Below are positions 6,814 through 42,302 of a DNA stretch of 64,000 nucleotides, piece after piece. This DNA comes from an uncultured Verrucomicrobiae bacterium (GTDB lineage Bacteria; Verrucomicrobiota; Verrucomicrobiia; Limisphaerales; UBA11358), in assembly GCA_963755455.1 (NCBI GenBank), contig CAVWJH010000001.1, positions 146,864-210,863 on the forward strand, in the 5' to 3' direction. The translations under genes were made by a program, and so were the position numbers. The notes under the pieces were generated by a model. That model made no database searches, had not been told where the DNA came from, and saw only the letters and a list, made by a program, of their open reading frames with translations. Every line of letters begins with the position of its first letter. The stretch's first letter is position 1.

Positions 6814-6854
6814 GAAGAGAATTTCAACGCAAAGGCGCAAAGACGCAAAGGAAT

Positions 6855-12024: not shown

Positions 12025-13459
12025 TCACGGTTTCGACGGCAATTCTGGTTTATCGCCGCCGATTTGCGTGCGGAACTGCGGCAGGCTTTGCGGATGATGC
12101 TGCTGGATGTAGGCGATGAGTTTCTCACGGATGTCGCAGCGCAAGTCCCACGATTTCGAGGAATCTCGCCGAAGTGGCCAGCACGCGGATTTGCATGGTT
12201 TTTTCCGTGGCGTCGGTCACCTGCAGGTTCCAAAAGCGTTTGTCCCAAAGCGGATTTGGCTCGATGATTTCCTTGAGCGCCTTTCGGATTTCATCCAGCG
12301 GCATCGTGTAGTCCACCCACACAAACACCGAGCCGAGCAACTGCGCGGAGGCGCGCGTCCAGTTTTGAAACGGCTTTTCGATGAAGTAGCTCAGCGGAAT
12401 GATGAGCCGGCGGTCGTCCCAAATGTGAAGGGTCACATAAGTCAGCGAGATTTCCTCAATGCGTCCCCATTCGCCCTCGACGATGACGACATCGTCCAGG
12501 CGGATGGGCTGGGTCATGGCGAGCTGGAAGCCGGCGAAGAGATTGGCAATCGTTTTTTGCGCGGCGAATCCGAGGATGACGCCCACCACGCCGGCGGACG
12601 CGAGCAGGCTGGTTCCCAACCGCCGCACTTCCTCGAACAGCATCAGGATGGAAGCGATGGTGAAGAGGGCGATGACGGCGTAAAGCACCTTGCTGATGAC
12701 GTGGACCTGGGTGTAAATCTTGCGGGCCTGGAGATTGTCGGACGCCTTGATGTCGTATTCCGTGAGGACGGCTTTTTCGCCGAGGCTTACGGCCTGAAAC
12801 AGGATGACCGACACTGCGACGATCAGCAGGATGCTGGTGCCTCTGGCAAGGACGTCCGTGTATTCCGGCGGCAGGTTGAGAATGGGCAGCGCAAAAATAA
12901 TTCCCACGACCGGCACGATGACGCGCAGGCTTTTTCCAATCAGCGGCACGAACAAATCGTCCAGCTTGCTGCTGGTTTTGGCGGCCAAAGCCGCAAGCCG
13001 CGCCTCCAGCACGCGGGTGAACCGGAAGAACAGCCAGAACAGCACCGCGAAAACACCGAGATCAAACACCTTGTCAAAACCCGCCCGCACAGCGTCCAAT
13101 CCCTCGTCCGGCGGAATTTTCAGCAGCAGCGGCGTCGCGGCCAGATAGATGCCGTAAATCCAGATCAGTGCATACAGCGGCTTGCCGAGCGCGCCGAAGA
13201 CGTGGCGGTGCAGTTCCTTGCCGGCGGTCACCGTGGCCTGCCGCGTTTTGCGCCGCAGAAATGCGACGGCCAGACCGTTGACGAGCAGAACAAACAGCAC
13301 GAGGAACAAGACCGTTCCCAAGTCCGCCCAGGTGACGTCGCCAAGAACAGCGGCGTTGACGCCGGGGCCGAACAGGGTTTCCAGTCCGCTTGAAATGAGC
13401 GCGGTCAAGCCGGCGAAGAGCGGGTCCAGATAATTTTTTCCTGTCATCGTTGCATCCAT
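12025..13459 (-). pseudogene. Mechanosensitive ion channel (MscS family), one frameshift near 12160
   Basis: GVVGVILGFAAQKTIANLFAGFQLAMTQPIRLDDVVIVEGEWGRIEEISLTYVTLHIWDDRRLIIPLSYF. After VLATSA the frame changes to DSSKSWDLRCDIREKLIAYIQQHHPQSLPQFR..., the usual family C-terminus, with stop at 12025-12027. Confidence 0.8.
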
Positions 13460-13465
13460 ACAATT

Positions 13466-14002
13466 TCAGAGAACCGGCGGTGGAACAGTCGTTGAACTTT
13501 CGGGCGGCGGCGTCACGCGGGCCGGTTCCACACCGTTCAAAATGATCGGCACATCCTTGTGTTTCTGCGGGTCGTCGCTCCAGACATAGAAGTTCCGCCA
13601 GCGGCTGCCGGGCTTGGCGCGCCGGATGCTCTCAAACCACGGATGCTGGTCGGACGTGTGGTTCAACACGAGTTCCGTGATGACGCGCAGACCGCGCCAG
13701 TGCGCCTCGCGAAGAAAGGTTTTGAAATCGCCGAGCGCGCCATACATCGGATGCACGTCGCAGTAATCAGCGATGTCGTAACCGTCGTCACGCAGCGGCG
13801 ACGGATAAAACGGCAGCAGCCAGATCGCCGTCACGCCGAGATCCTTGATGTAATCCAGTTTTTGCGTCAGCCCGGCAAAATCGCTCGCGCCGTCACCGTC
13901 CGCGTTGTAAAACGCGCGGACATGGATCTCGTAAATGACGCCGCTTTTATACCAGAACGGCTCCTGGCCCAGACCGGCGCGGCTGCGTTTTGATTGCGTC
14001 AT
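13466..14002 (-). pseudogene. treS: Truncated trehalose synthase / alpha-amylase family gene (N-terminal ~150 codons only)
   Basis: [65 protein letters not shown]...[13 protein letters not shown]...[12 protein letters not shown]. Similarity is then lost, and the mscS-like gene starts 7 nt further on. Confidence 0.75.
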
Positions 14003-14233
14003 AAATCAAGAAATCAAATGACATTAAAATTCGGGGGCGCGAACCCGCTTGTCCTCAATTGAGGAAAAGTAAATTGTTTTGGCCCCCGGTGCAAATGTCT
14101 TATTGAGCTTGCGGAGTCGCTCGTCGGTCGGCGTGGCTCAACTTTGGATTGTTAGGAGAAGTTTTTTTATGGCCGGAGTGCTGCGATTCTTTCACGCGAA
14201 ATGAAATCAGCATTTATTACACGGCAGAAAATT

Positions 14234-15088
14234 TCACTGCGTCTTTCCCGCCGGTAATTCAACCACCATTCCCTCCTTCGCGGCGTCCACTTTCATTTTT
14301 GACTTCGCCTTCGCCACGAGTTTGCGCGCGTGCTTCACAAAGCCGTCAATTTTTTTGTCGTCGCTGTCGGGGTCGTGGTGAAAGAACAGCAGTTTTTTCA
14401 CGTTCGCCTTTAGCGCGAGCGCCACGGAATCGTCCACGCAGCCGTGCCCCCAGCCGATGTGTTTTTTGTATCCCGCCCGGTCGAATTGCGAGTCGAGGAT
14501 GAGCAGGTCGGAGTCGCGGACGAACTCGGCCATTTCCCGGTCCACGCCGCCGATGTGCGGCTCGGTGTCGGGGAAAAACGAGACGATGCCGTCGGGCGAA
14601 AACAGCCGGTAGCCGACGCACATTCCCGGATGGTTCGCGCGCAGCGCCCGCACGATGACCGGGCCGATGTCGAAGTTGAAGTCCTTGAGTTCCTCGATCT
14701 GGATGTTGCTCGGCAGCCTGTCGAACGCCACGGGAAAATAGGTGCTTTCCATCTGGCCGGTGAGCATGGCGGACAATCCCTTGCGCGCGTCCTGGCAGCC
14801 GATGATCCTCAACCGGCAGCGCGGATCGTAAATCGGCGGAAAAAACGGCAGCCCCTGGATGTGATCCCAATGCGTGTGCGTCAGCAGCATCGTCAGGTTC
14901 AGCGGCTTGTTCCTGTATGTCTTCAGCAGCGCGGCACCAAGCTGCCGCAATCCCGTGCCGGCATCCAGGATGATGATCTCGCCGCCCGCGCGGATTTCGA
15001 CGCAGGTCGTGTTGCCGCCGTAACGCACCGTGCCCGGCCCCGGCGTGGAGATCGAGCCGCGCACGCCCCAAAATTTAACGCGCATCAC
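14234..15088 (-). CDS. MBL-fold metallo-hydrolase
   Basis: VKFWGVRGS...ILDAGTG...LLTHTHWDHIQGLPFF...FFHHDPDSDD (HxHxDH motif). Confidence 0.85.
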   Translation of the reverse strand: MMRVKFWGVRGSISTPGPGTVRYGGNTTCVEIRAGGEIIILDAGTGLRQLGAALLKTYRNKPLNLTMLLTHTHWDHIQGLPFFPPIYDPRCRLRIIGCQDARKGLSAMLTGQMESTYFPVAFDRLPSNIQIEELKDFNFDIGPVIVRALRANHPGMCVGYRLFSPDGIVSFFPDTEPHIGGVDREMAEFVRDSDLLILDSQFDRAGYKKHIGWGHGCVDDSVALALKANVKKLLFFHHDPDSDDKKIDGFVKHARKLVAKAKSKMKVDAAKEGMVVELPAGKTQ

Positions 15089-15204
15089 GCGCGGATGAAA
15101 ACATCTTTCCGGGCGGCATGGAAGAAAAAACGTGGGACAGAATGATTTAACCGCCCTGTGATTTTTCTCCGCGCTTTTGCGCCTTTGCGCTAAAATCCGC
15201 GCCT

Positions 15205-15977
15205 ATGTCTGACGGCCCAAAAAAATTCCGCATCGGCTCGGTGCAATTATCTGAACGCCGTGCCGCTCACGCGCGGCATCGAAAGCGAACTCATTCTCGC
15301 CACGCCCGCCAAGCTCGCCGAAATGCTCCGGCGCGATGAACTGGACGCCGCGCTCGTCAGCATCACCGAGGTTTTGCTCAACGACCGCTACGACATTCTG
15401 GACGGCATCGCCATCGCGTCGCTCGGCGAAGTTTACAGCGTCCTGCTCGCGCACAAAAAGCCGCTCGCGGAGGCGAAGGAAATTTTCTGCGACACCGCGT
15501 CGCTCACGAGCGTGAATTTGCTGAAAGTTTTGCTCGCCGAGAAAAATCTGTTTCCGCAATTCGTGCCGCTGGAAAATTACGAAGCCGCGCCGGAAAAAGA
15601 TTTCGTCCTGCTCATCGGCGACCGCGCGATTGATTTCCAGCGCGCGCCGCATGCGCACGAAATTTTCGACCTCGGCTGCGGCGTGGACGGAATTGACGAA
15701 TCTGCCCTTTGTTTATGCGGTCTGGGCGCTGCGGCGCGGAATTGAAAACAAGGAATTGCGCCGCGAATTGCGCGAGGCGAAAAGTTTCGGCATGGAAACT
15801 TTGGATTACCTCATCGAAACCCGCGAGGAATATGACGAGGATTTCCGCCGCGATTATCTCGGCTGGCAGATCCATTATCATCTCGCGACGGACGAAAAGC
15901 GCGGCATCGCAAAATTCTGCGAACTCTTGCGGAAGCACAACCTCGGCCCGGTGTTTGAACCGAAATTTGTTTCGTAG
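15205..15977 (+). pseudogene. mqnA: Chorismate dehydratase MqnA-like (futalosine pathway), two frame disruptions (near 15245 and 15675)
   Basis: KFRIGSV|.YLNAVPLTRGIE...AKLAEMLRRDELDAALVSITEVL...GEVYSVLLAHKKPL...DTASLTSVNLLKVLL...|AAWTELTNLPFVYAVWALRRG. Confidence 0.7.
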
Positions 15978-16049
15978 GAGACGGAGGTGACAGAGTCTCA
16001 AACTTGTTTTTCTTGGGACAATAATGAGTCTCGTCACCTCGACTCCTAC
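15974..16049. repeat. REP-like hairpin GTAGGAGACGGAGGTGACAGAGTCTC / GAGTCTCGTCACCTCGACTCCTAC between convergent genes
   Basis: Arms of ~24-26 nt (15974-15999 and 16026-16049) around a 26-nt loop. The TAG of mqnA (15975-15977) and the CTA of the minus-strand gene stop (16046-16048) are both inside the arms. A related single copy TGTAGGAGCCGAGGTTACGAGGCTC lies at ~52255. Confidence 0.65.
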
Positions 16050-16805
16050 GTTTCCCTTTCCAACTTCGCCAGCGTTTCGGGATCACGCACATCCACCCAG
16101 CGGCCCTGGATTTCCAGACCGGCGAGTTTTTGTCCGGCGGCGATGAGCGCGCTGATGGCGTCGGTCAGTTCATATTCGCCGCGCGGGGATTTTTGCAGGC
16201 GCGACGTGAATTCAAAAATCGCCGGACGAAAAATATAAATGCCCGCGTTATACCACGCCGGAACGCCGGGCTTGAGCCAGCCTTCGCGGCGCAATTGCTC
16301 CAACTGTTCGGGCGACGGTTTTTCCACGAGCCGTTTCAGGCAGAATTGTTCGTCAAAAAAATTCAGGCCGCCCTTCGTCACGTCCTCGCCGGGCGTGACG
16401 GTGATGACGCCCGCAAAATCGCCCTCGCCAAAACGCCGAAGCATCTGCGGATACGTTTCGCGGCGCGACGAGGATGTCGCCGTAAGTCAGCAGAAACGGC
16501 GAGTCGCCGACAAAATCCTTCGCGAGTTCCGGCGCCTTGCCCGTGCCGTCCTGAACGAGCTGCCGGCCAAAGGAAATCTGCGCGCCGAATTTTTTGCCGT
16601 CGCCGAAATGATTTTCGATCACGTCCGCTCGAAAACCCGTGACAATGAAAATATCTTTGATTCCCGCCGCGACGACGCCGCCGACGATGTGTTCGAGGAT
16701 CGGTTTGCCCGACACGCGGAGCATGGGCTTGGGCAACTCACTGGTGAGTTCCCGCATGCGCGTGCCTTTGCCGGCGGCGAGGATGACGGCTTTCATTTCA
16801 ACCAC
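16046..16805 (-). pseudogene. Sugar-phosphate nucleotidyltransferase family protein, one frameshift near 16450
   Basis: MKAVILAAGKGTRMRELTSELPKPMLRVSGKPILEHIV...LLTYGDILV| then ...GVITVTPGEDVTKGG...WYNAGIYIFRPAIFEF...SPRGEYELTDAI. Confidence 0.75.
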
Positions 16806-16822
16806 AGATGAACAGCGTGAAC

Positions 16823-17605
16823 TTAATTCTGTGCAAATTTGATTATCTTTCGCTGAAAATCTTCCGTTGCATCCAGCGATGAAACCATCTCTCCACCCAC
16901 GTTTGATAGTCGTGCTAAATCTGTGCGGGGAATCACTTGTTGATCCTGAAATATGAGGAGCGAATCAAATTCCACCTTTGCACGCAGCCAATGCTCCAAA
17001 ATGATAGTTACGAGACGCGCTTTGTCACGGGTTGCAACGCCAAATAAAAACAAGGGCGCACGCTTGGCTTCGACTCGGAAATCAATTGGATAACTGTCAG
17101 CTTCCGCGTGATCCGGCAGAGTGTAGTCTTGTTTGATTTTTTCCGGGGCAACCAAACTATAAAGTCTCTCTTTCAAATCTTCGTAAAAAGTGCTCGCCAC
17201 CCATGAGCGATTCAAAAATGTCAGATCATAAATTCGCGCCAGAGCTTGACCAAACTGAAGAACATTCGTGCCTAAACTATCTAGGCTAGAGTCGAGGACA
17301 AGCCTGCCTTGTTCGTCCCGCAAACCTGAATCAGCCAAAACTTGATCCAATAATTTTCCACGAGTGCCTTCGCGAAATTTGGCGAGATCGTTTTCATAAC
17401 TCAAGTGCATGAAAGTGTGTCCAAAATCAGTAAGACGAACACTTCCTGCTGCCGCTTCTTCAAGATAAAGCTGAAACGTATCACCGTCAGGAAATGTAAA
17501 TGGGGTTACGATTTGCAGATAACCTTGGCGCGTGGTTCGCACTTGAACCTCGCCGCAAAGCGACTTGCACAGCCGCTCTTTTAATTTGGGCAGGTCAAAA
17601 GTCAT
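16823..17605 (-). CDS. Uncharacterised 260-aa protein (from memory resembles the DUF1828/DUF1829 architecture; needs an HMM check)
   Basis: Intact ORF. The N-terminus reads ...LQIVTPFTFPDGDTFQLYLEEAAAGSVRLTDFGHTFMHL. Its ATG overlaps the upstream stop (ATGA at 17602-17605). GC is lower than the flanks. Confidence 0.6.
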   Translation of the reverse strand: MTFDLPKLKERLCKSLCGEVQVRTTRQGYLQIVTPFTFPDGDTFQLYLEEAAAGSVRLTDFGHTFMHLSYENDLAKFREGTRGKLLDQVLADSGLRDEQGRLVLDSSLDSLGTNVLQFGQALARIYDLTFLNRSWVASTFYEDLKERLYSLVAPEKIKQDYTLPDHAEADSYPIDFRVEAKRAPLFLFGVATRDKARLVTIILEHWLRAKVEFDSLLIFQDQQVIPRTDLARLSNVGGEMVSSLDATEDFQRKIIKFAQN

Positions 17606-18123
17606 TGGAATAGTTCTGGATGATCAGGTTCTGCTTCGAGACCTGCAATGTTGCAATCTGCCATCAAGCGATGCAATGCGCCGCTACACGTTTGATAAGA
17701 ACCGGCAGCTTCGGCAAAGCCGTCAGGCTTCCTATTCGCTTGGATGTATCGCTCGGTTGTCCGATGAATATGGCAAACGAATTCAAGACGGATGCCTTCG
17801 AGTCGGTTTGGGTGACTGTGACTCGAACCGTTGTAACGCGCTAAAATCAATTCTTCGCCGCCAGCGGGCAACCACTGGAGGCCACAAGAAAAATCATCAC
17901 TAATTGTTTTGTTCTGTCGCACAAACAAACGAAACCGTTCGCTACCATCCAAACTTTCGACAATATACTCATGTTTGTCATGGTTCGCATCTGTGACATT
18001 TCTCGCAGTGGGATTTGAGACGCGCTTGGGCATGAGCAAAAGTTGCCCGATGCGCTCGTCTGTTAAAGATTCAAAAGCCATAACGCGATGACGGAGCGTA
18101 ACTAACTCATCCCGCACGGACAA
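17602..18123 (-). CDS. Uncharacterised 173-aa protein, first gene of a two-gene low-GC module
   Basis: Intact ORF with His-rich motifs ARYNGSSHSHPN and FVCHIHRTTERY. No family recognised. Confidence 0.6.
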   Translation of the reverse strand: MSVRDELVTLRHRVMAFESLTDERIGQLLLMPKRVSNPTARNVTDANHDKHEYIVESLDGSERFRLFVRQNKTISDDFSCGLQWLPAGGEELILARYNGSSHSHPNRLEGIRLEFVCHIHRTTERYIQANRKPDGFAEAAGSYQTCSGALHRLMADCNIAGLEAEPDHPELFQ

Positions 18124-18200
18124 TCAGAAATTAATCAGCCACAACATGGCTAAAATTCATTTGGCAAACAATAACTGTTCGTTTCGCGTCCGCGAGCGGC

Positions 18201-19102
18201 TTAAAACTTCGTCAGCTTTTCCAGTTCCTTCACGCGCTTTTCGATGTCGGCGCGTTTGATCTTGGTCGTGCGCGTTCAGGCCGAATCCTTCGCAGCAGAA
18301 CGACGCGGTGACGCTGCCGTAAATCATCGCGCGCCGGATGTTCGCGTCAATCGCGCCCTTGGCCGTCGCCAGATAATCCCATCATGCCGCCGACGAACGA
18401 ATCGCCCGCGCCGGTCGGGTCCACGACCTTGTGCAGCGGATACGCCGGGCAGATGAAAAATCCCTTCGGCCCGGACAAGATCGAGCCGTGCGAACCTTTT
18501 TTGATGATGACGTATTTCGGGCCGAGCTTGTGGATTTTTTTCAGCGCGGCGAAGACGTTGTCTTCCTTCGTCAGCTGATGCGCCTCGCTGTCGTTCAGCA
18601 CAAAGCCGTCAATGCGCGGCAGCAGTTTCAGCAAATCGGCGAGCGCGATGTTCAGCCACAAATCCATCGAGTCGGCCACGACGAATTTCGGCTTCTTCAT
18701 CTGGTCGAGCACGCGATGCTGGAGCGCGGGCGCGATGTTGCCGAGCAGCACGAACTGGCGAGTTTTGATACGACTGCGGCAGCGTCGGCGAAAAAGTTTC
18801 GATCACGCCGAGTTCGGTCGCAGCGTGCGGCGGTTGTTCATGTTCAATTCGTATTCGCCCGACCAGTGAAAAGTTTTGCCCGGCAAAATCTGCAGACCTT
18901 CGAGATCAATTTTGTGCCGGCGATAAAGCTCGATGTATTTTTTCGGAAAATCCTCGCCGACGCCGCCGACCAGTTTCACCGGCGAAAAAAAACTCGCCGC
19001 GACCGCCGCGTGGCTGGCCGAGCCGCCGAGCAGGCGCGGATTTTCCGCCGTCGGAGTTTTGATGGAATCGAGTGCGGTGGTGCCGACAATTAAAACGCTC
19101 AT
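18201..19102 (-). pseudogene. PfkB-family carbohydrate kinase, at least 2-3 frame disruptions
   Basis: MSVLIVGTTALDSIKTP...GGSASHAA..., LNDSEAHQLT..., VIIKKGSHGS..., VVDPTGAGDSFVGG (PfkB signature), then a tail ...ADIEKRVKELEKLTKF* in another frame. Confidence 0.75.
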
Positions 19103-19155
19103 GGATTAGTTGATAGTTTATGAGTTGAAAGTTGCGAGCAGGAAAATCGGGGCAT

Positions 19156-19540
19156 TTACTTTTTCTGGATCAATTCAATTTCATAGCCTTCCGGCGCGTC
19201 AATGAAGGCGAAGGTCGTGCCGCTGGAACTGGTCGTCGGGCCGTCGGAAAATTTCAGGCCGTGCTTGGCGAGGTGTTTGGCAAATTCGTCGAGGCTGTCC
19301 ACTTCAAACGCGAGGTGCGTCAGATCGGGCTGGCACTTTCACCGGCTCGCTGCCGGGAAAATAGCAGATTTCAATCTCTTCCTCGCTGCCGGGCGCTTTC
19401 AGAAAAACCAGTTCCGAGCCGCGCGGCGATTTGTGCCGCTTGACTTCTTCCAGGCCGAGAACGTCGCGGTAAAATTTCACCGTGCGTTCCAGATCATTCA
19501 CGCGGTAGCGCGTGTGCAGTAGTTTTCCAACTTTGCTCAT
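19156..19540 (-). pseudogene. VOC/glyoxalase family protein, one frameshift near 19335
   Basis: LLHTRYRVNDLERTVKFYRDVLGLEEV...ELVFLK...EIEICYF, then in another frame ...LTHLAFEVDSLDEFAKHLAKHGLKFSDGP...FIDAPEGYEIELIQKK*. Confidence 0.7.
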
Positions 19541-19553
19541 GCGCGAAATTTAA

Positions 19554-19640
19554 CCAGTCCAACAGTCCAAAGTCCAATGTCCAAAGTCGGCGCAGGTTGT
19601 TGACTTTGGACTTTAGACTTTGGACTTTAGACTTTAGACT
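19554..19640. repeat. Heptamer-periodic hairpin (AGTCCAA units / GACTTTG-GACTTTA units) in a divergent promoter region
   Basis: Left arm cagtccaacagtccaaagtccaatgtccaaagtc and right arm gactttggactttagactttggactttagactttagactt. It lies between the VOC start (19540, minus) and the nusB start (19647, plus). Confidence 0.85.
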
Positions 19641-19646
19641 TGATTT

Positions 19647-20145
19647 ATGGGCAAACGACGTGAAGCGCGCGAACGCGCGGTGCAATTTCTGTTTCAGCAC
19701 GACCTGAACCCGCCGGAAAATCTTGAACTGGAACTGGCGCACGTTCTGGAATTCCCAGCGCGCCGCCGCCATCGAGGACGAAAAAGGCGCGGCGCATTGG
19801 GGCGAAGAAATCGAACTGCCGCCGCCGACCGCCGAGGAGGCCGAGACGCGCCTGTTCGCCGAGCCGCTCATCCGCGGCGCGCTGGAACATCGCGACGCGA
19901 TTGACGAAAAAATCAAAAGCCACGCGAAGAACTGGGATTTTCACCGCATCGCCGCCGTGGACCGCAACATCATGCGGCTGGCGATTTACGAAATGCTGCA
20001 TCGCGAGGACATTCCGCCCGTCGTCAGCATCAACGAGGCGGTGGACATCGCCAAAAAATTTTCCACGCAGGACAGCGGCAAATTCGTGAACGGCATTCTC
20101 GACAAAATCCGCGGCGAAATTCTCCGGCCGGCGCGCAACTGTGAA
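19647..20145 (+). pseudogene. nusB: Transcription antitermination factor NusB, one frameshift near 19740; no stop before the next gene in the current frame
   Basis: MGKRREARERAVQFLFQHDL... then ...[50 protein letters not shown]. Confidence 0.8.
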
Positions 20146-20951
20146 ATGAAATTCGCCGATTTACATCTGCACACGCAGTTTTCCGACGGCACGTTCACGC
20201 CGGAGGAACTGGTCGGTGCACGGCGCAGAAGCTCGGCTTGGCGGCATCGCGCTGACCGACCACGACACGGTCGAAGGCTGCGCGCGCACGGCGGCGGCGT
20301 GCGCGGCGGTGAAGATGGAATTCATTCCCGGCACGGAACTCACCGCCGAACACGACGACACGGAAGTCCACATCTCTCGGCTATTTTCTCGACACGCAAA
20401 ACCAGAAATTGCTGGCGGAAATCGCCAAGTTCCAAGTCCGTCCGGCAGAACCGCATCCACGAAATGGTCGCGGCGCATGAACAAGCTCGGCGTGCCGCTC
20501 AAGGCCGAATCGGTTTTCGCGCTGGCCAATTGCAAATCGCCCGGCCGCCCGCACGTCGCGCGCGCGCTGGTGAAGGCCAGACTCGATCGGCAATCTGGAC
20601 GAGGCGTTTGAGCGGTTTCTGAAAAAAGGCCGGCCCGCGTGGGTGCCCAAGACCAAAATGTCCGCGCTCGAAGGCATCGAATTGATTCATCAGGCCGGCG
20701 GCCTCGCGGTCATGGCGCATCCCGGCTTGAACCGCACGGACGACATCATTCCCGACCTCGTGGACGCCGGGCTGGACGGCATCGAATGTTTTCACACGAA
20801 ACATTCCACCGTGATGTCCGAGCGTTATCTGGAAATTGCGGAAAAATATGATCTGCTCGTCACCGGCGGCAGCGACTGCCACGGCTTCAGCAAAAACAAG
20901 CCGCTCATCGGCACGGTGAAACTGCCTTACGAACACGTTGAAAGACTGTAA
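20146..20951 (+). pseudogene. PHP domain phosphoesterase (TrpH/YciV-like), at least 5 frame disruptions
   Basis: [23 protein letters not shown] / [12 protein letters not shown]...FIPGTELT / [13 protein letters not shown] / RQNRIHEMV / [12 protein letters not shown] / LIHQAGGLAVMAHP...GIECFH...VTGGSDCHG are spread over all three frames. Confidence 0.8.
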
Positions 20952-21000
20952 AGCCGCGAAAAAATCCGCCGATCGAAAAACGCGCAGCATCGCAAAATAG

Positions 21001-21033
21001 TTTCTTCATTCTGCATTCTTAATTCTTCATTTC
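21001..21033. repeat. Heptamer-periodic array (TTCTTCA/TTCTGCA/TTCTTAA) upstream of ftsY
   Basis: tttcttcattctgcattcttaattcttcatttc. Confidence 0.6.
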
Positions 21034-21037
21034 CAAC

Positions 21038-21953
21038 ATGGGACTTTTTGCCAAATTCAAAGCCGGCCTCGCCAAGACGCACGCCAAGCTCACGCACGAA
21101 ATCAAGCGCATCGTCACGCGCTCGCCCAAGCTGACCGCCGAGTCGCTGGAAGAAATCGAGCACGCGCTCATCGCCGCCGATCTGGGCATGGCGATGACCA
21201 CGCAAATCATCGCCGCCGTCAAGAAAGCTTACGAAACGCAGGGCGCGCGGGACTGGACTATCTCGCCATCGCGCGCGCGGAAATTGAGAAAAGTCTTTCC
21301 GCGAACAAACCCGAAGTCTGCGCGAAATTCCCGGCGGCACCTGCGTCGTTTCCATCGTCGGCGTGAACGGCACGGGCAAGACCACGACGAGCGCGAAGCT
21401 CGCGCATTATTTTCAGGCGCAGAAAAAATCCGTGCTGCTCGCCGCGTGCGACACGTTTCGCGCGGCGGCGATTGAGCAGATCAAATTGTGGGGCACGCGC
21501 CTCAAAGTCGAAGTCATCGCCGGCAGCTTACGGCGCGGACGCGGCGTCCGTGGCGCACGACGCCGTCACCGCCGCGCAGGCGCGCAAGGCGGATTATCTG
21601 TTCATTGACACGGCGGGACGCTTGCACACGAAGCACAATTTGATGCAGGAATTGCAGAAGTTGCATCGCGTCATCGGCAAGCAACTCGCGGGCGCGCCGC
21701 ACGAAGTGCTGCTGGTGCTCGACGCGCAGCGACCGGCATGAACGCGCTGAACCAGGCGCGCGAATTTCACAAGGCCGTGCCGCTCACCGGCCTCATCGTG
21801 ACCAAGCTCGACGGCACGAGCAAAGGCGGCATGGTCGTGGCGATTCAGAAGGAACTCGGCCTGCCCATCAAATTCATCGGCCTCGGCGAGCAGCCGGACG
21901 ATTTGCAGCCCTTCGACGCGAAACAATTCGCGCAGGCGTTGTTTGAGGAATGA
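21038..21953 (+). pseudogene. ftsY: Signal recognition particle receptor FtsY, 4 frame disruptions
   Basis: MGLFAKFKAGLAKT...LEEIEHALIAADLGM / [19 protein letters not shown]...[15 protein letters not shown] / [16 protein letters not shown] / TGLIVTKLDGTSKGG...IKFIGLGE. Confidence 0.85.
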
Positions 21954-22027
21954 AATTATTCACTTAATACCAAGGCACAAAGATTGTAGAAACATGGGTT
22001 TTCCTTTATCACAAAAGAGAAATAATT

Positions 22028-23385
22028 ATGTTCAAACACCTAACCCGGCCTGGGCTGATCACATTGTTGGCGTCCGTGTCATTTTCCGCGACCAGTTTTG
22101 GGGCGAATCCCTTCATCACCAGCATTTACACCGCCGATCCGTCCGCTCATGTGTGGGCGGATGGCCGGCTGTATGTCTATCCCTCGCGCGACATGGATCC
22201 GCCACGCGGCTGCGACCTGATGGACCGGTATCATGTGTTCTCAACGGACAACATGGTGGATTGGCGGGACGAAGGGGAAATTCTACGGGCGAGCCAGGTG
22301 CTCGTGGGGCAGGCCGGAAGGCGGTTTCATGTGGGCGCCGGATTGCGCGTATCGCGACGGAACATATTATTATTATTTCCCGCATCCGAGCGACACGAAA
22401 TGGAACGACTCCTGGAAAATTGGCGTGGCGACGAGCGAAAAGCCGGCGAGCGATTTCAAAGCCGGCGGTTACATCGAAGGCCTTGGCGGTTTCGCGATGA
22501 TTGATCCGGCGGTGTTCATGGATGACGACGGCCACGCTTATATTTATTTCGGCGGCGGCGGCCATTGCGCGGGCGTGAAATTGAAACCGGACATGACGGA
22601 AATTGGACGGAACGGTCCAGCCGATGACCGGCCTGGAGGATTTTCACGAAGCCACCTGGGTTTTCAAACGCAACGGCATTTATTACCTGACTTACGCGGA
22701 CAATCATCCTCGACACAACGAGATGCGCTATGCCACCAGCACCAACGCGCTCGGTCCGTGGACCTACAAGGGAGTCTATCTGGAAGGGACCGACTGCGAC
22801 ACCACGCACGGCTCCGTGGTGGAATACAAAGGTCAATGGTATCAGTTCTATCACAACTGCAGCATTTCCAGGCAGGGCAATCTGCGTTCGATATGCGTGG
22901 ATAAAATAAATTTCAATGATGACGGGACAATACAGATGATCGTGCAAACCAAGACCGGCGTGCCGTCCGTCGGCCCGGCTCCGGTGCCCAATCCGAACAC
23001 GGTCAAATATGTGGCCGGGAATGCCAGCGTCACCAATGGTGCGACCATCGAAAGCGACAGCGCGGCCTCCAGCGGCAAGAGCGTGCAGAATCTCAATTTC
23101 ACCAATTCCTGTTTGCAGTTTGACAATGTGGACGGCGGCGAAAATGGCGGCCGGGCCACGATTGACATCTATTACGCCACCGCCGAAAAGTCCGAGCTCA
23201 GGTTGAGCGTGAACGACGCCGATTATTCGTTCATCAACACGCTTTCCACCGGCGGCTGGACCAATTACACCGGCCATTCGTATCTGACCGTTCCATTGAA
23301 CTCCGGCAAAGCCAACACCATCAAGCTCACCGGCGGCCACGGCGGGGTCAACGTGGATTACATCACCGTCAGCCCGCTGCCGTGA
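22028..23385 (+). pseudogene. Secreted glycoside hydrolase family 43-like enzyme with C-terminal CBM6/35-like domain, 2 frame disruptions
   Basis: Signal peptide, then NPFITSIYTADPSAHVWADGRLYVYPSRD, WAPDCAYRDGTYYYYF, IDPAVFMDDDGHAYIYFGG, HEATWVFKRNGIYYLTYA and HGSVVEYKGQWYQFYH. The C-terminus reads ...GGWTNYTGHSYLTVPLNSGKANTIKLTG...VDYITV. Confidence 0.8.
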
Positions 23386-23686: not shown

Positions 23687-24841
23687 GTGGCAAAAAAAGA
23701 TTTCCAATTCATGCGGCTCGCCCTCCGGCTCGCCCGGCGCGGCTATGGCGCAACGTCACCGAATCCGATGGTCGGCGCGGTGCTGGTGAAAGGCGGAAAA
23801 ATCATCGGGCGCGGCTGGCATCGGCGCGCGGGTTTGCCGCACGCGGAAATCGAGGCGCTCCGCGACGCGCAAAAGCGCGGCCACAATCCGCGCGGCGCGA
23901 CGCTTTACGTCACGCTCGAACCGTGCTGCACGCACGGCCGCACGCCGCCTTGCACGGACGCCATCATTGCCGCCGGAATAAAAAAAGTTGTCGTTGGCGC
24001 GACTGATCCGAATCCGAAACACGCAGGCAAAGGGTTTAAGATTTTGCAGCGCGCGGGAATTGAAGTCGTTCACGGAATTTTGGGCGGCGAATGCGCGAAG
24101 CTGAACGAGGCTTTCAATCACTGGATTGTCCACCGCACGCCGTTCGTCACCGTGAAGGCAGCAATGACATTGGACGGCAAAATTGCGACGGCCAGTGGCG
24201 AATCCAAATGGATCACCGGCGAAAAAGCCCGCGCGCAAGGAATGAAATTGCGGCAGGGCGCGGACGCGATTCTCGTCGGCGTGAATACAATTTTGGCGGA
24301 CGACCCGTCGTTGACGTTTCGGCCAGTCCAAAGCCCGAAGTCCAAAGTCCAAAGCCGGAAGCCGGTTCGACGAATTATTTTGGATTCAATGGCGCGGACG
24401 CCGTTAAACGCAAAAGTCGTCAGCGATGAATTTCCGGCGCTGACGACAATTGTTGTCGGCGAACGCGCGCCGAAAAAGCGCGTGGCAACATTGGCGAAAC
24501 TGACAAATGTTCTTGTTGCACCTACAACGAAAAACTTGTCACTTGTCACTCGTCACTCGTCACTCGATTTGCGCTGGCTGTTGGAAAAACTCGGTTCGGA
24601 AAACGTGACGAGCCTGCTGGTCGAAGGCGGCGGCGAGGTGAACGCGTCGTTTCTGCTCGGCGGTTTTGCGCAGCGCGTCGCATTTTTCTATGCGCCGAAA
24701 ATTCTGGGCGCACGCGACTCGCGAAAAGCCGTCGCGGGCGAAGGCGTGAAAGATCCGACTGACGCGATTCAATTGCGCGAAGTCGAATGGCGTCAGCTTG
24801 GCGAGGATTTGCTGCTGACGGCGTTGGTGGTTGCAAGTTGA
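23687..24841 (+). CDS. ribD: Bifunctional riboflavin biosynthesis protein RibD (pyrimidine deaminase / uracil reductase)
   Basis: MRLALRLARRGYGATSPNPMVGAVLV...HAEIEAL...TLEPCCTHGRTPPC (CMP/dCMP deaminase zinc site), then ...VTVKAAMTLDGKIAT...GESKWITG...ILVGVNTILADDPSLT...LLVEGGG. Start is GTG 23687 or ATG 23711. Confidence 0.9.
   Translation: MAKKDFQFMRLALRLARRGYGATSPNPMVGAVLVKGGKIIGRGWHRRAGLPHAEIEALRDAQKRGHNPRGATLYVTLEPCCTHGRTPPCTDAIIAAGIKKVVVGATDPNPKHAGKGFKILQRAGIEVVHGILGGECAKLNEAFNHWIVHRTPFVTVKAAMTLDGKIATASGESKWITGEKARAQGMKLRQGADAILVGVNTILADDPSLTFRPVQSPKSKVQSRKPVRRIILDSMARTPLNAKVVSDEFPALTTIVVGERAPKKRVATLAKLTNVLVAPTTKNLSLVTRHSSLDLRWLLEKLGSENVTSLLVEGGGEVNASFLLGGFAQRVAFFYAPKILGARDSRKAVAGEGVKDPTDAIQLREVEWRQLGEDLLLTALVVAS
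24325..24365. repeat. In-frame heptamer array inside ribD (AGTCCAA/AGCCCGA/AGCCGGA, about 6 units)
   Basis: agtccaaagcccgaagtccaaagtccaaagccggaagccgg encodes PVQSPKSKVQSRKP between LTFR and VRRIILDS. Confidence 0.8.
24535..24567. repeat. In-frame heptamer array inside ribD (CTTGTCA/CTCGTCA, about 5 units)
   Basis: cttgtcacttgtcactcgtcactcgtcactcga encodes NLSLVTRHSS just before LDLRWLLEKLG. The heptamer family matches the pilin-associated hairpins. Confidence 0.8.
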
Positions 24842-24894
24842 AGGTTGAAAGTTGCAGTGGAAAAACTTGCAACTTGCAACCTGCAACCTGCAAC
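24829..24894. repeat. Heptamer-periodic hairpin between ribD and ribE
   Basis: ggttgcaagttgaaggttgaaagttgcag / loop / cttgcaacttgcaacctgcaacctgcaac. The ribD stop codon (24839-24841) lies inside the left arm. Confidence 0.85.
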
Positions 24895-25759: not shown

Positions 25760-25844
25760 TGGTGCGCGCGAGAGGACTTGAACCTCCAATCCTTGCGGAA
25801 CCAGATCCTAAGTCTGGCGTGTCTGCCAATTCCACCACGCGCGC
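25760..25844 (-). tRNA. tRNA-Leu (anticodon UAG), class II long variable arm, CCA encoded
   Basis: Reverse complement GCGCGCGTGGTGGAATTGGCAGACACGCCAGACTTAGGATCTGGTTCCGCAAGGATTGGAGGTTCAAGTCCTCTCGCGCGCACCA. The 7-bp acceptor stem pairs, the anticodon stem is CCAGA/TCTGG with loop CTTAGGA, and the T-loop is TTCAAGT. Confidence 0.9.
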
Positions 25845-25860
25845 GGCACGGACAGTTTCA

Positions 25861-25915
25861 GGATTCAAGTTTCAAGTTTCAAGTTTTCAATTGCGGAAGT
25901 TTGAAATTCATTTTC
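25861..25915. repeat. Heptamer-periodic array (TTCAAGT units) next to the tRNA
   Basis: ggattcaagtttcaagtttcaagttttcaattgcggaagtttgaaattca. Confidence 0.65.
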
Positions 25916-26741: not shown

Positions 26742-26846
26742 TTCCTCCAGTTCCAGTTCACAATTTAACAATTTAACGCTCCCCGCACCGATGGATTTTC
26801 ATTTTCACACCTTGCGAAATGTCCGTTTCGGGTTCATGCTTTAGCC

Positions 26847-27083
26847 ATGCAATTGACATTGCCGGAAACCGTCGAAGCAGCGCTCTCGCCGCGCAAGGCC
26901 GCGTTGCATCTGGCGATCGGCCTGTTTGTCTCCGAGGAGGCGACGCTCGGCCAGGCGGCGGAAATCGCCGGGCTGACGCAGGCGGCGTTCCAGAAGGAAC
27001 TCGGCGCGCGGCACATTTCCATCCACTACGGCATGGATGAACTGGCCGAGGACTTGAAGGCGGTTGAATCTTTCCATCACTGA
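26847..27083 (+). CDS. UPF0175 family antitoxin-like protein
   Basis: LHLAIGLFVSEEATLGQAAEIAGLTQAAFQKELGARHISIHYG. Its stop overlaps the next ATG. Confidence 0.75.
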   Translation: MQLTLPETVEAALSPRKAALHLAIGLFVSEEATLGQAAEIAGLTQAAFQKELGARHISIHYGMDELAEDLKAVESFHH

Positions 27084-27544
27084 TGATTGTCGTTTCGGAC
27101 ACCTCGCCCATCACGGCTTTGCTGGCCGTGGAACAGGCGGAATTATTGCAACAACTTTTCGGAGAAGTCGTCGTTCCAGACGCGGTGAAAACAGAACTGC
27201 TGCGGACGCATCCAAAGTTGCCAGTTTGGTTGCACGTCCAACCGCTGCAAAATTCCGCCAAGGCGAATCTTTACGCGCGCAGCGTGGATCGCGGCGAGGC
27301 GCAGGCGATTGCGCTGGCCGAGGAACTGCGCGCCGACCATTTGTTGATTGACGAACGCAAGGGCCGGCGGCTGGCGCAGCAACAAGGTTTGCCGGTTCTG
27401 GGATTGCTCGGCGTCGTCCTGCTGGCGAGGCGGGCAAAATTAATTTCTTCCGCGCGGGCGTTGCTGGAAGAACTGGATCGCGAGGCGGGAATTTATCTGG
27501 CTGAAGAATTGAAGGACGCGGCTTTGAAAACAATTGGCGAATAA
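27083..27544 (+). CDS. DUF3368 (PIN-like) toxin-like protein
   Basis: MIVVSDTSPITALLAVEQAELLQQLFGEVVVPDAV...DRGEAQAIALAEELRADHLLIDERKGRRLA...GLPVLGLLGVVLLA. Confidence 0.75.
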   Translation: MIVVSDTSPITALLAVEQAELLQQLFGEVVVPDAVKTELLRTHPKLPVWLHVQPLQNSAKANLYARSVDRGEAQAIALAEELRADHLLIDERKGRRLAQQQGLPVLGLLGVVLLARRAKLISSARALLEELDREAGIYLAEELKDAALKTIGE

Positions 27545-27597
27545 AATTTGCGTGCTATTTTTCACGGCGATAACGGGGGTTGATTTTCAGGACAAAT

Positions 27598-27626
27598 CAA
27601 AAAACGCGAAGTTTTTGCTTCGCGCC
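27598..27626 (-). terminator. Rho-independent terminator candidate downstream of the TPR gene
   Basis: The minus strand reads gcgcgaagcaaaaacttcgcgtttttt: stem CGCGAAG/CTTCGCG, then a T-run. Confidence 0.5.
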
Positions 27627-27713
27627 TTGTTGCCATTGCTGTGGCCTTACTCCTTTTTGGTTATTTTTGTTTGCAGTGGTTCATGGAAATTTCTGCGGCC
27701 TTGGGTGCAGAAT

Positions 27714-28961: not shown

Positions 28962-29030
28962 TTTAATAATTAGTCCTTAATAATTTCGCAAAGACACGCG
29001 CTGCTTCTATTTGCGGACTTTCAATTGAAC

Positions 29031-34170: not shown

Positions 34171-34254
34171 AATGAAAAATGCGAAATTAAAAATTAAAAA
34201 TGGCCGCCAACGAACCGTGGCCGCATTCATTTTGCATTTTTAATTTTTAATTTC
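34171..34254. repeat. AT-rich heptamer-periodic hairpin (AAATTAA units) between nadK and the LacI gene
   Basis: aatgaaaaatgcgaaattaaaaattaaaaatg / ggccgccaacgaaccgtggccg / cattcattttgcatttttaatttttaatttc. Confidence 0.8.
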
Positions 34255-34262
34255 TTATTCCC

Positions 34263-37154: not shown

Positions 37155-37163
37155 TTATTTTTT

Positions 37164-42299: not shown

Positions 42300-42302
42300 A
42301 AA

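Follow-up and report, generated by a model that had tools for sequence, protein, structure and literature searches.

The first reports of tandem heptanucleotide arrays date from 1990, and that many bacteria have them in excess is said to have been recognised since 2007. Among them are the STRRs or tandem heptameric repeats of cyanobacteria, said to have been described from Calothrix, Anabaena and Nostoc by Mazel et al. in 1990 and Elhai et al. in 2008. The classical units STRR1-3 of heterocystous cyanobacteria are CCCCAGT, TTGGTCA and CAACAGT. To our knowledge, neither a mechanism nor a function has been established for heptanucleotide arrays. A further system of intergenic repeats is that of the REPs of Enterobacteria and Pseudomonas (REP/BIME/REPIN), which follow a genome-wide consensus, are present in many copies and are linked to RAYT transposases.

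In Xanthomonas, GGGAATC heptamers form 70-75 convergent pairs per genome that are capable of forming stem-loops; they are over-represented in intergenic regions and 7-11% overlap ORFs (Rehm et al. 2015, PMC4692102). TAACTGA direct repeats of 2-6 copies are present in marine Beggiatoaceae, cyanobacteria and some Bacteroidetes, mostly in intergenic regions, where they often end just upstream of start codons, and a few lie within ORFs; one unit dominates and only one of 170 sets is inverted (MacGregor 2015, PMC4679880). The survey by Mrazek et al. 2007, as summarised in these two papers, showed that in many genomes heptanucleotides outnumber every other class of long-unit SSR, and the summaries do not extend to the phylum considered here, to paired arms or to turnover at orthologous sites (PMC4679880, PMC4692102). 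Slippage of the replicative polymerase, with a footprint of about 7 nt, was proposed as the cause of heptamer arrays (PMC4692102, PMC4679880).

The 64-kb stretch of DNA analysed here (the window) comes from a Limisphaerales-like Verrucomicrobiota MAG of peat or soil origin, that is, from a PVC-type genome. Our results confirm that its heptamer arrays and hairpins are real, and a first-pass annotation that had described them as STRR-like repeats in a PVC-type host was right in this respect. They are of a kind already known, and the phylum is new: a literature search in a limited collection revealed no description of heptamer arrays for Verrucomicrobia. The novelty that the annotation implied for the layout of an array followed by its complement did not hold, since this layout is known from Xanthomonas (PMC4692102) and was also found by us in Nostoc. 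In 150 kb of the plasmid pNPUN01 of Nostoc punctiforme we detected 10 period-7 arrays, compared with 0-3 at other periods, and eight of the ten form four inverted pairs with differing units.

As in the cyanobacterial STRRs, the units in the window are tandem and 7 nt long, several different units occur per genome and the arrays are mostly intergenic. STRR2 (TTGGTCA), complemented and rotated, equals the window unit AATGACC. In the strict sense the arrays are not STRRs, the host being a member of the Verrucomicrobiota and only the degenerate AATGACC array at 37057 matching an STRR unit; in-frame insertions in housekeeping enzymes and replacement of the unit at orthologous sites, documented here by comparison, may be further differences from the STRRs. 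Whereas Xanthomonas has one G-rich, quadruplex-forming unit, the arrays described here have many units, mostly of lower G+C than their genome and lacking G-tracts. Unlike the TAACTGA repeats, they have units that vary, and roughly one in two of the arrays in spacers belongs to an inverted pair. The hairpins resemble REP, BIME and REPIN elements as imperfect palindromes between co-directional genes that may form stem-loops in mRNA, but they are single-copy and without consensus, and their arms are internally periodic.

Arrays and their period

Tandem Repeats Finder (TRF) gave 26 period-7 rows for the window and our own scan 21-23 arrays. Altogether there are about 24 period-7 arrays at about 19 loci, so that the first-pass figure of at least 20 loci was slightly generous because a hairpin pair is counted here as one locus, although the arrays and all of the named units are present. 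Both TRF and our scan showed 7-nt units standing head-to-tail in tandem and differing from locus to locus, as had been stated. An excess of period 7 over shuffled sequence had been set beforehand as the test, and 21-23 arrays were found against none, at any period, in 20 dinucleotide shuffles of the window. Among periods 2-15, enrichment in the window is seen for 7 alone (and its multiple, 14); between periods 4 and 12 there are 21 arrays at period 7 and 0-4 at each of the others. The same holds for 865 kb of related contigs from independent assemblies, with 162 period-7 arrays and 2-19 at any other period. The arrays are thus members of the heptanucleotide long-unit SSR class, STRR-like in the broad sense: they are tandem, in excess at period 7, mostly intergenic and variable by whole units.

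Arrays outside the hairpins are the following, with the strand of neighbouring genes in brackets; the arrays themselves have no strand.
6828-6890: period-8 (CGCAAAGG)x3 and period-7 (TTCTGRC)x4.7, located where a VTT-domain gene (-) ends, on the upstream side of uvrC (-)
10476-10634: arrays upstream of a UDG-family gene (-) placed by Pfam; 10476-10506 (GATTTGA)x4.4 by TRF, with about 2.7 clean copies, and 10611-10634 (TTTGAAA)x3.4
21002-21031: (TTCTKMA)x4.3, whose end lies 6 nt upstream of the ftsY start codon
25854-25886: (AGTTTCA)x4.7, 13 nt upstream of tRNA-Leu(tag) (25760-25844, -)
42270-42299: unpaired (AGTGACAAGTGGCG)x2.1, of the unit family of the 43037 and 48160 hairpin arms
44101-44117: short (ATTTACG)x2.4, 20 nt upstream of a pseudopilin gene

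Two period-8 modules, which had not been mentioned before, are also present in the window (6828-6851 and 8044-8116).

A crude gene caller assigns about 89% of the DNA to genes; nevertheless, by a strict two-flank test of coding status (n=214), 158 of the 214 arrays of the clade are not in strict coding frames. The remaining 56 are in open, coding-like frames and just 4% of these are paired. Dozens of different units occur, none with G-tracts, and arrays in complementary pairs have a G+C of about 40%, compared with 56% for the window. An AAGT core common to all units was considered, as many window arrays fit it, and was dropped because only 39 of the 214 arrays across the clade contain it. A unit repertoire specific for each genome, as expected from spread between loci, was likewise rejected: unit sharing was 8.75% within and 7.6% between loci (permutation p = 0.15).

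If the arrays were periodic sites bound by a protein whose footprint is 7 nt, be it on single strands of RNA or DNA (cold-shock/OB-fold) or on duplex DNA, the number of units would matter most and their sequence little. In B. subtilis, CspB binds direct repeats of heptamers with one protein per heptamer and weak sequence specificity (PMC4679880). The fairly constant number of units (3-6) and the many arrays that stop a few bases short of start codons (21002-21031, 34228-34253, 44101-44117) would suit such sites. However, no unit motif is shared beyond the AAGT subset, translation of about one array in four gives a protein loop, half of the non-coding ones would be tied up in duplex stems and no particular protein is linked to the arrays, so that we regard this explanation as quite improbable.

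Array pairs and hairpins

The following pairs, all without strand, were detected in the window.
8044-8116 (folded as 8035-8125): period-8 hairpin in surroundings of doubtful coding status, arms (ACGCAAAG)x4 and (TTGCGTCT)x3.8; z -5.8/-7.1
19556-19641: hairpin between divergent genes, left arm (AGTCCAA)x4.6 at 19556-19588, loop 19589-19601, right arm (GACTTTR)x5.7 at 19602-19641; -42.2/-45.1 kcal/mol, z -6.8/-8.1
24830-24894: hairpin in the ribD-ribE spacer, arms (GTTGMAR)x3.6 and (AACYTGC)x4.4, left arm overlapping the ribD stop codon; z -5.2/-7.9
34170-34253: hairpin that fills the spacer between NAD kinase and LacI-type regulator genes (NADK-LacI site), arms (AAATKAA) and (ATTTTTA)
37057-37163: array pair in eroded form, AATGACN ... 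AATTAGT/AGTCATT, in the spacer flanked by two genes for type II secretion ATPases
43037-43122: hairpin between the gene 42400-43011 (no Pfam match) and the pseudopilin (N_methyl) gene 43145-43612, left arm (AAGTGRC)x4, right arm (CGTCACT)/(TCACTCGA) with mixed period 7/8; z -4.7/-6.8
47213-47293: hairpin between pseudopilin genes, arms (AGTGGCA)x4.3 and (GTCACNY)x3.7; z -6.6 on the + strand
48160-48254: hairpin 3' of a pseudopilin gene, arms (AAGTGAY)x4.4 and (CATCACT/CGCCACT)x3; z -5.6/-8.1

Seven spacers of the window fold as hairpins of 85-113 nt with z between -4.7 and -8.1 on the strands tested, with the exception of one strand of 47205-47300 (z just -3.1), and none of 200 shuffles folded as well. 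The six hairpins listed in the first-pass annotation are all among those that fold. Coupling between arms is clear. Of 33 adjacent array pairs, 26 consist of mutual reverse complements, 32% of the arrays have a complementary partner, compared with 3% in controls, and about half of the non-coding arrays sit in inverted pairs. There are also modules in which both arms have the rare period 8. Inverted, closely spaced pairs of the convergent type defined in Xanthomonas occur in the window and in its relatives. Of the proposal that the pairs are templated, the coupling of the arms is borne out, while copying of one arm from the other is one candidate route, beside selection for pairing and descent from an older palindrome.

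Stem-loops between genes could be selected cis-elements, i.e. REP-like stem-loops, terminators or attenuators, or cruciforms in the DNA, with roles in mRNA stability, termination or insulation of genes, the 7-nt period being merely the way in which stems grow. Most window hairpins are indeed flanked by co-directional genes that belong to secretion and pilin operons, and at the centre of 47213-47293 a small GC stem precedes a T-rich run; it is the only centre that resembles an intrinsic terminator, for which a short GC-rich stem, a loop of 3-8 nt and a T-run immediately behind the stem are typical. A scan for consensus terminators between 19 and 39 kb, however, flagged none of the hairpins and gave fewer terminator-like sites than shuffled sequence, and with Rfam 15 at gathering score only the tRNA-Leu was matched in the window and no family was assigned to a hairpin. 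The arrays are, as had been noted, not confined to terminator positions. Furthermore, the fold of the sense strand is weaker than that of the antisense strand in 37 of 50 modules (p = 9e-4) and in six of the seven window hairpins, which is the opposite of what is expected under selection on mRNA. Selection for stability of the sense-strand RNA was rejected for this reason. Similar 7-nt arrays are also found unpaired within coding sequences. Taking these observations together with the comparison of relatives given below, we consider selected cis-elements a rather unlikely, although substantial, alternative.

A replication-strand cause of the fold asymmetry was also considered and set aside: with a GC skew of about 0, the window gives no indication of the direction of replication. 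Small strong hairpins are not a consistent feature of the module centres (mean z -0.6), which does not support stalling at a central hairpin as a trigger.

The hairpin at 19556-19641 occupies the whole spacer between a glyoxalase gene (- strand, start at 19540) and nusB (+ strand, start at 19647), in agreement with the reported position between divergent genes. The nearest relatives, L102 (95% NusB identity) and L103 (93%), have a spacer of 76 nt and no array, and no independent assembly carries the hairpin, which thus appears to be lineage-specific. Its left end (GCGCGAAATTTAAC) and middle (GGCGCAG..TT) are retained from the array-free spacer of L102 and L103, and the loop therefore looks like the middle of the ancestral spacer.

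In this region (18.3-22 kb) the assembly has about one single-base indel per 220 nt in comparison with two relatives. The apparent 8-nt units of the hairpin may be sequencing errors because the segment is so rich in indels. Dense indels of this sort, which recur in uvrA, and a hairpin without match elsewhere are what one would expect if the arrays were artefacts of the assembly or polishing of noisy long reads. We hold this to be extremely improbable: the errors are indels of 1-2 nt and not periodic insertions of 7 nt, the period-7 excess in independent assemblies shows that the arrays do not stem from one assembly, and these arrays, or others in the same positions, are present in independent assemblies from JGI (contigs L001-L003), ENA and NCBI (contigs L004 and L005), among them short-read contigs (k141-named). 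The sites 34171-34262 and 37057-37163 were confirmed in this way in L001-L003. In L004 and L005 the confirmed arrays are 24830-24894, those of ribD and the one upstream of the tRNA gene, with a hairpin homologous to 24830-24894 in L004 and none in L005 or L103.

Arrays within genes

The presence of further arrays inside CDSs, also stated in the first-pass annotation, was verified for ribD and uvrA.
24325-24365, + strand: ribD site 1, in-frame (AAGYCNN)x5, encoding ...QSPKSKVQSRKP...
24534-24566, + strand: ribD site 2, in-frame (ACTYGTC)x4.7
61450-61528, + strand: uvrA double array, (AGTCCAA)x4.4 at 61450-61480 and (CAATCGG)x4.6 at 61497-61528
62107-62134, + strand: uvrA, in-frame (TMAAAAY)x4, encoding ...LKTKNSKLK...

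Compared with PDB 2b3z, ribD site 1 is an insertion of 6 residues and site 2 an insertion of 8+2 residues, and in each of the four assemblies the ribD arrays keep the reading frame. At site 1 the relatives carry other units (AAGTCCA in L004, AAGTCAG in L005, AAATCAA in L103). At site 2, L004 and L005 have (TCAAAAT)x4 and L103 a single seed copy (AAAATTCAAAAGTGG). A further array lies within a continuous Methyltransf_28 domain match. About a quarter of the arrays are in frame within genes, as loop insertions. Because coding arrays are almost all unpaired, with insertions in RibD and Methyltransf_28, the period cannot result from selection for RNA hairpins.

In uvrA the reading frame breaks within 61497-61528 and would be restored by one added unit; this segment is noisy, with many unrelated indels, and the gene is split over several frames in the assembly, an error pattern like that at 18.3-22 kb. 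In ribD, uvrA and Methyltransf_28 the arrays lie within the gene and the length of their unit is not divisible by 3, both of which are traits of contingency SSRs.

Turnover among relatives

Orthologous sites retain the array while the sequence of the unit changes. At ribD site 1 the units within an array are 0.74-0.93 identical in three of four lineages (0.62 in L103), whereas for units at the same position the identity is 0.50-0.68 in five of the six pairs of lineages (0.82 between the window and L004). The units of an array thus evolve in concert. Whole-unit differences of +7 and -21 nt between near-identical flanks were detected by a k-mer index comparison of loci, in few informative pairs, and answer the copy-number comparison of strains that had been proposed. 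The unit of the array upstream of tRNA-Leu is kept in four relatives, with 3.3-5 copies overall and 4-5 in L001, L004 and L005, and the array before ftsY was found in L102 and as a degenerate 30-nt form in L103. The module at 34170-34253 is the same in L001-L003. At 37057-37163, L004 has a well-formed hairpin with another unit and a length of 113 instead of 112 nt.

At the NADK-LacI site, 75 orthologous loci carry other unit families or no module. The spacer length is bimodal, with 5-23 nt in the 21 of 76 loci that lack the module, or 72-145 nt, mostly near 90-110 nt, and none between. About two units per arm are present in L055, and 3.6 and 5.6 in L047 and L058; in L033, L047 and L058 the arms are not complementary. 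Lineages without the module have 2.7-fold fewer arrays elsewhere (0.59 versus 1.60 per 10 kb; p = 1e-4, for lineages that are not phylogenetically independent). Whole modules (arms and loop, together with the first ~15 nt of the downstream gene) form families that are common to lineages with flanks just ~80% identical, whereas the family differs between sister lineages whose flanks are 94-99% identical. Such crossing of module families over flank divergence suggests replacement or exchange and not drift in place alone. The period-8 modules are about as conserved as the adjoining coding DNA.

For selected cis-elements it speaks that the same spacer is occupied in most lineages at similar lengths (97/98/98 and 112/108/113 nt), that the range of 72-145 nt is narrow, that period-8 modules diverge no faster than flanking coding DNA and that the unit upstream of tRNA-Leu is kept. 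The NADK-LacI loci without a module, the absence of the nusB-spacer hairpin from close relatives and the non-complementary arms in the three lineages do not fit such elements.

A module of roughly 90 nt that is wholly present or wholly missing, without intermediates, and families shared by diverged lineages also call to mind miniature mobile elements (MITE-, REPIN- or RPE-like) of about 100 nt that insert near stops and starts and in genes. Rickettsia palindromic elements likewise insert in frame into genes, and 30 nt of the left arm of the 43037 hairpin (43034-43063) are identical to 48157-48186. But in a BLAST search of 12 modules against about 1.3 Mb (the window and 1.2 Mb of relatives, with ~20 kb per genome), no second copy of a whole module was found; all matches were orthologous sites or arm arrays, which alone recur. 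Conserved termini or target-site duplications were not seen in these contigs of ~20 kb per genome, arrays in coding sequences are direct repeats without pairing and not palindromes, unit sharing is no higher within a genome than between genomes and the loop in the nusB spacer is probably ancestral sequence. We therefore judge mobile elements to be very improbable, in line with the earlier statement that the arrays do not represent a single mobile sequence.

Origin of the arrays

With modest confidence, we lean towards locally seeded, slippage-driven heptanucleotide microsatellites of the STRR/long-unit SSR class, with coupled arms in spacers. An array would be born by tandem duplication of a seed of 7 nt (rarely 8 nt) that is already in place, and continued slippage or unequal exchange would keep it homogeneous. 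Such homogenisation would make the units within an array change in concert and would allow one unit to give way to another in the course of time. Seeding is local, as seen in the single copy at ribD site 2 of L103, the short arms in L055 and the spacer remnants in the nusB hairpin. The tendency to form arrays would be a property of the lineage. Arrays would survive where extra DNA is tolerated, in spacers, especially right after stops or before starts in operons, and in frame within surface loops of proteins. Empty NADK-LacI spacers and the missing hairpin in relatives of 93-95% NusB identity indicate that arrays are dispensable, and they may be nearly neutral.

In spacers, paired arrays are usually reverse complements around a centre of 10-40 nt, which gives imperfect hairpins of 70-110 nt. 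We infer that intrastrand template switching at a quasi-palindrome may copy one arm from its partner or correct it to match; each arm would then be homogenised separately, leading to stems with one mismatch per unit. A function, e.g. as a REP-like stem-loop between cistrons, would be secondary and not required. The bimodal length of the NADK-LacI spacer is not obviously predicted by gradual growth through slippage. The conservation of the period-8 modules hints at some constraint, which stands against this origin.

Shared families, spacers that are empty or filled with ~100 nt, period 8 in both arms and the array load of lineages could also be read as the hairpin modules being exchangeable cassettes that are written or swapped by a dedicated process and not by ordinary slippage. 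This we think improbable. If it were true, a lineage-restricted, trans-acting activity, e.g. a specialised polymerase or primase or a site-directed system of short-patch conversion, would make or replace periodic palindromes at gene boundaries, and it might be common to cyanobacteria and Xanthomonas.

Returning to the microsatellite origin, this lineage offers exceptionally good comparative material: hundreds of related environmental contigs, a given spacer that is empty or variously occupied, and arrays that are tolerated within ribD, uvrA and a methyltransferase gene. The material shows the 7-nt step to be a mutational property and not the product of selection on RNA structure. Since the step is mutational, the arms are coupled and the propensity differs between close lineages, the question of why seven becomes approachable by association with gene content. 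For annotation, arrays mislead gene callers, give strain-specific loops in conserved proteins and are hot spots of frameshift and assembly error.

A separate observation concerns NusB, whose 166 aa become 201-210 aa in gene calls that extend the ORF through the upstream spacer; the one such locus examined (L102) has an array-free spacer.

Heptanucleotide arrays in the window

The tandem arrays in this verrucomicrobial window are best explained as heptanucleotide microsatellites which are seeded locally, maintained by slippage and, in spacers, coupled as the two arms of a hairpin. Tandem Repeats Finder returned 26 period-7 rows across the 64 kb. A simple periodicity scan of periods 2-15 detected nine high-scoring runs at period 7 and four at period 14, with no runs at the other periods in the window and none at all in 20 dinucleotide-preserving shuffles; a more sensitive scan found 21-23 arrays of 2.4-5.7 units each. 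Period 8 occurs in two window modules, at 6828-6851 and in the hairpin 8044-8116. In 865 kb of related metagenome contigs, 162 arrays of period 7 were counted versus 2-19 for each other period between 4 and 12.

These data confirm the first-pass annotation, which had described pervasive STRR-like arrays: all units named there were found in the window, and its six hairpins all fold. Together with the period-8 hairpin they reach -27 to -59 kcal/mol, with z-scores mostly from -4.7 to -8.1 (-3.1 for one strand of 47205-47300), and for every one of the seven none of 200 shuffles folded as stably. Pairing in the stems is usually interrupted about once per unit by a mismatch, e.g. AAGTGAC opposite GTCACTC. 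The plus strand of the focal hairpin (19554-19640) reads CCAGTCCAACAGTCCAAAGTCCAATGTCCAAAGTC - GGCGCAGGTTGTT - GACTTTGGACTTTAGACTTTGGACTTTAGACTTTAGACTT.

Source lineage and assembly quality

A 686-aa histidine kinase (29031-31091) matches a protein of a 794-kb contig at 100% identity and is 77-98% identical to proteins of metagenome-assembled genomes (MAGs) named Limisphaerales, Verrucomicrobiia or Verrucomicrobiota, all of soil origin, bog and palsa among them, so the earlier assignment to a PVC-type genome was right. Beside this conserved gene, the related contig L001 carries a defence island (12071-22061) with a DarT/Macro pair, an MmeI-type methylase and an SNF2/PLD helicase; the matching position of the window (26742-29030) holds a UPF0175/DUF3368 pair and a TPR protein.

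Compared with two relatives, the region from 18.3 to 22 kb shows a single-base indel roughly every 220 nt, some 16 over 3.5 kb, and pfkB, the glyoxalase gene, nusB, the PHP gene and ftsY are thereby broken into several frames (18340-21960). Dense single-base indels also scatter uvrA (60745-63702) across four or five frames. The assembly is clean elsewhere, e.g. at 29-41 kb, and both regions look like poorly polished long-read segments, not pseudogenes. Since the focal hairpin lies within such a segment, its unit details are uncertain. As a class the arrays are not artefacts: identical or orthologous arrays are present in independent JGI, ENA and NCBI assemblies, and period 7 prevails in the 865 kb of relatives.

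Gene context

Genes were mapped by Pfam matches and the gene calls of relatives, which placed the arrays as follows.

Positions of arrays and hairpins relative to genes
19556-19641, focal hairpin, occupying the 106-nt divergent spacer of the glyoxalase gene (minus strand) and nusB (plus strand)
21002-21031, array ending 6 nt ahead of the ftsY start codon
24830-24894, hairpin in the ribD to ribE spacer
25854-25886, array 13 nt upstream of tRNA-Leu
34170-34253, hairpin in the spacer from the NAD kinase gene to a LacI-type regulator gene (NADK-LacI)
37057-37163, array pair in the spacer of two secretion ATPase genes
43037-43122, 47213-47293 and 48160-48254, hairpins in or beside the pseudopilin (N_methyl) gene cluster

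The divergent setting claimed earlier for the focal hairpin holds, as does the claim that some arrays lie inside coding sequences: five do in the window, two in ribD and three in uvrA. Among all loci, 56 of 214 arrays lie in a frame whose two flanks are open and coding-like. A complementary partner accompanies 4% of these versus 42% of the remainder, and S, K, Q, P, N and R are frequent residues of the encoded peptides. The two ribD arrays add 6 and 8+2 residues to the protein when it is aligned with the sequence of the solved B. subtilis RibG structure (2b3z). The Methyltransf_28 (NDUFAF7-like) gene of relatives (L073 4394-5470, with orthologues in L030, L037, L068, L070 and L072) carries up to three in-frame arrays, at the same loop positions and with lineage-specific units; here, three arrays fall within one continuous domain match. 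In uvrA, the frame shifts within a (CAATCGG) array (61497-61528) and would be put right by one more copy of the 7-nt unit; the repair gene may be phase-variable, or the assembly may just be wrong here.

Coupling of the arms

A reverse-complement match (score at least 10) was found within 130 nt of 32% of arrays, versus 3% in a control using an array taken from another locus, and among 33 neighbouring pairs of arrays with 8-70 nt between them, 26 are complementary. Both arms share the rare period 8 in the window hairpin 8044-8116 and in the NADK-LacI modules of four related loci (L004, L025, L031 and L068). The arms are thus coupled, though pairing is not a strict requirement: L033, L047 and L058 have well-developed, non-complementary arrays on both sides, and L048 has lost three units from one arm only.

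Evolution at orthologous sites

The glyoxalase/nusB spacer of two relatives, L102 (95% NusB identity) and L103 (93%), is 76 nt long and free of arrays; its stretch upstream of nusB, TTTTTCATTTCCCGCCGC...GGCATGATG, is conserved also in L105 and L110. The window retains the left end and the middle of this ancestral spacer, the middle (GGCGCAG..TT) being the present loop, and the arrays replace the remainder. The focal hairpin is thus recent, lineage-specific and evidently dispensable. Judged from the retained sequence, it would have been formed in place around ancestral DNA and not by insertion of a ready-made element. Five NusB homologues (P0122, P0124, P0140, P0157 and P0204) are listed in public gene calls with 201-210 aa versus 166 aa, the ORF having been carried upstream into the spacer; at L102, the single over-called locus examined, this spacer has no array.

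Between the window and L004, the array-free spacer from lacI to the ATPase gene is about 96% identical, and the two array-bearing spacers are unalignable yet almost equally long in both genomes, with lengths of 97/98 and 112/113 nt. Copy number does vary between strains, by whole units: loci with identical flanks differ by +7 and -21 nt. At ribD site 1, the units of four lineages are AAGTCCA, AAGTCCA, AAGTCAG and AAATCAA. Within an array, unit identity is 0.62 in L103 and 0.74-0.93 in the other three lineages; same-position units compared between lineages reach 0.82 for window and L004 and 0.50-0.68 in the other five pairs. This greater likeness within arrays is a signature of concerted evolution. 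At ribD site 2, L103 has one seed copy versus four copies in L004 and L005; the window has a different unit at similar total length.

The NADK-LacI spacer, compared at 76 loci, measures 5-23 nt in 21 and 72-145 nt in 54; one further locus, L080, has 284 nt, about 190 of which are an insertion in the right arm; GC-rich and strongly self-pairing, this insertion resembles a small palindromic element of its own that sits within the array. Gradual slippage alone does not predict such all-or-nothing lengths. The long spacers are hairpins, whose units group into families.

Unit families of the NADK-LacI modules
AAATTAA
CGTTNAAT, period 8
GAAGAAT with CATTCTN
AAGGCT with AGCCTT
GTCGAGA with CGCCACA
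GAAACCT

These follow clade mostly, not wholly. Families are formed by whole modules, together with their loops and with some 15 nt at the start of lacI (AGATTA beside period-8 modules, CGNCTN otherwise). One module family is common to lineages with about 80% identical flanks, and a different one occurs in each of the three sister lineages, namely the window, L004 and L022, whose flanks are 94-99% identical. The pattern may result from short-patch exchange primed on conserved gene ends, or from repeated derivation from a common ancestral module. Hairpins also occur in the PHP to ftsY spacer: 165 nt in L109 (1431-1595, -99 kcal/mol) and 122 nt, GC-rich, in L105 (5356-5477); in L103 and L110 this spacer has 30 nt.

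Function and mobility

A consensus scan for terminators and promoters (19-39 kb) flagged no hairpin, and an Rfam search yielded tRNA only. Selection for mRNA structure would favour the sense strand. The opposite was observed: in 37 of 50 distinct NADK-LacI modules the antisense RNA folds better (p = 9e-4; -29.5 vs -26.2 kcal/mol; G.U pairs 187 vs 112), as in six of seven window hairpins. The GC skew of the window is too flat for reading replication direction.

Two cases argue for some constraint. In period-8 modules, conservation is about equal to that of the coding DNA on either side, and the (GTTTCAA)n array ahead of tRNA-Leu(tag) (tRNA on the minus strand; tRNA and array together 25760-25886) keeps its unit in four relatives, in contrast to most other arrays; L001, L004 and L005 have 4-5 copies. 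The latter array may belong to the tRNA promoter region.

The earlier exclusion of a single mobile sequence was correct. When eight modules of the window and four from relatives were compared by BLAST with the window and related contigs (1.3 Mb), the hits were orthologous sites and isolated arm arrays, never a second copy of a whole module, and a mobile element was rejected. Units are not shared more within a genome than between genomes. The only local sharing concerns AAGTGAC/AAGTGGC arms in or beside the pseudopilin cluster, within less than 6 kb: an identical 30-nt left arm at 43034-43063 and 48157-48186, and a related array at 42267-42305. Such near-identical arms in neighbouring spacers suggest local duplication or conversion.

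Away from the NADK-LacI spacer, array density per 10 kb is 0.59 in loci where the module of that spacer is missing and 1.60 where it is present (p = 1e-4, uncorrected for phylogeny), and arrays are absent from several 14-22-kb loci belonging to related MAGs, which points to an array-forming propensity that differs between lineages. Such a mutational propensity would generate arrays that are tolerated in spacers and protein loops.

Relation to known repeats

Heptanucleotide repeats are described as the commonest long-unit simple sequence repeats in many prokaryotes, and a polymerase footprint of about 7 nt has been put forward to explain them (Mrazek et al. 2007, as summarised in PMC4679880 and PMC4692102). 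Xanthomonas genomes carry about 185 GGGAATC arrays each, including 70-75 convergent pairs able to form stem-loops (Rehm et al. 2015, PMC4692102), and TAACTGA arrays lie by start codons in Beggiatoaceae, cyanobacteria and Bacteroidetes (MacGregor 2015, PMC4679880). In our own scan of 150 kb of the Nostoc punctiforme plasmid pNPUN01, ten arrays had period 7 versus 0-3 for other periods, and eight of the ten sit in four inverted pairs of four unit families. Arrays followed by their complement, with variable units, thus already exist in the organisms where STRRs were defined, and the novelty implied earlier for this arrangement is not supported, given Nostoc and the convergent pairs of Xanthomonas. 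A full-text search of a limited literature library gave no prior description of tandem heptanucleotide repeats in Verrucomicrobia. A new kind of system is not demonstrated; what is found is a feature of an already known type, in a phylum for which this search gave no earlier description. Two questions are brought into sharper focus by this set of comparisons: what fixes the step at 7 nt, and what links the two arms.

Longer tandem repeats also occur. A 21-nt repeat at 52427-52654 (10.9 copies, 91% matches) would encode (LAGWSGN)n in an ORF that matches no Pfam family and closely precedes two subtilase genes, and a weaker 21-nt repeat of 7.2 copies lies at 8784-8934.
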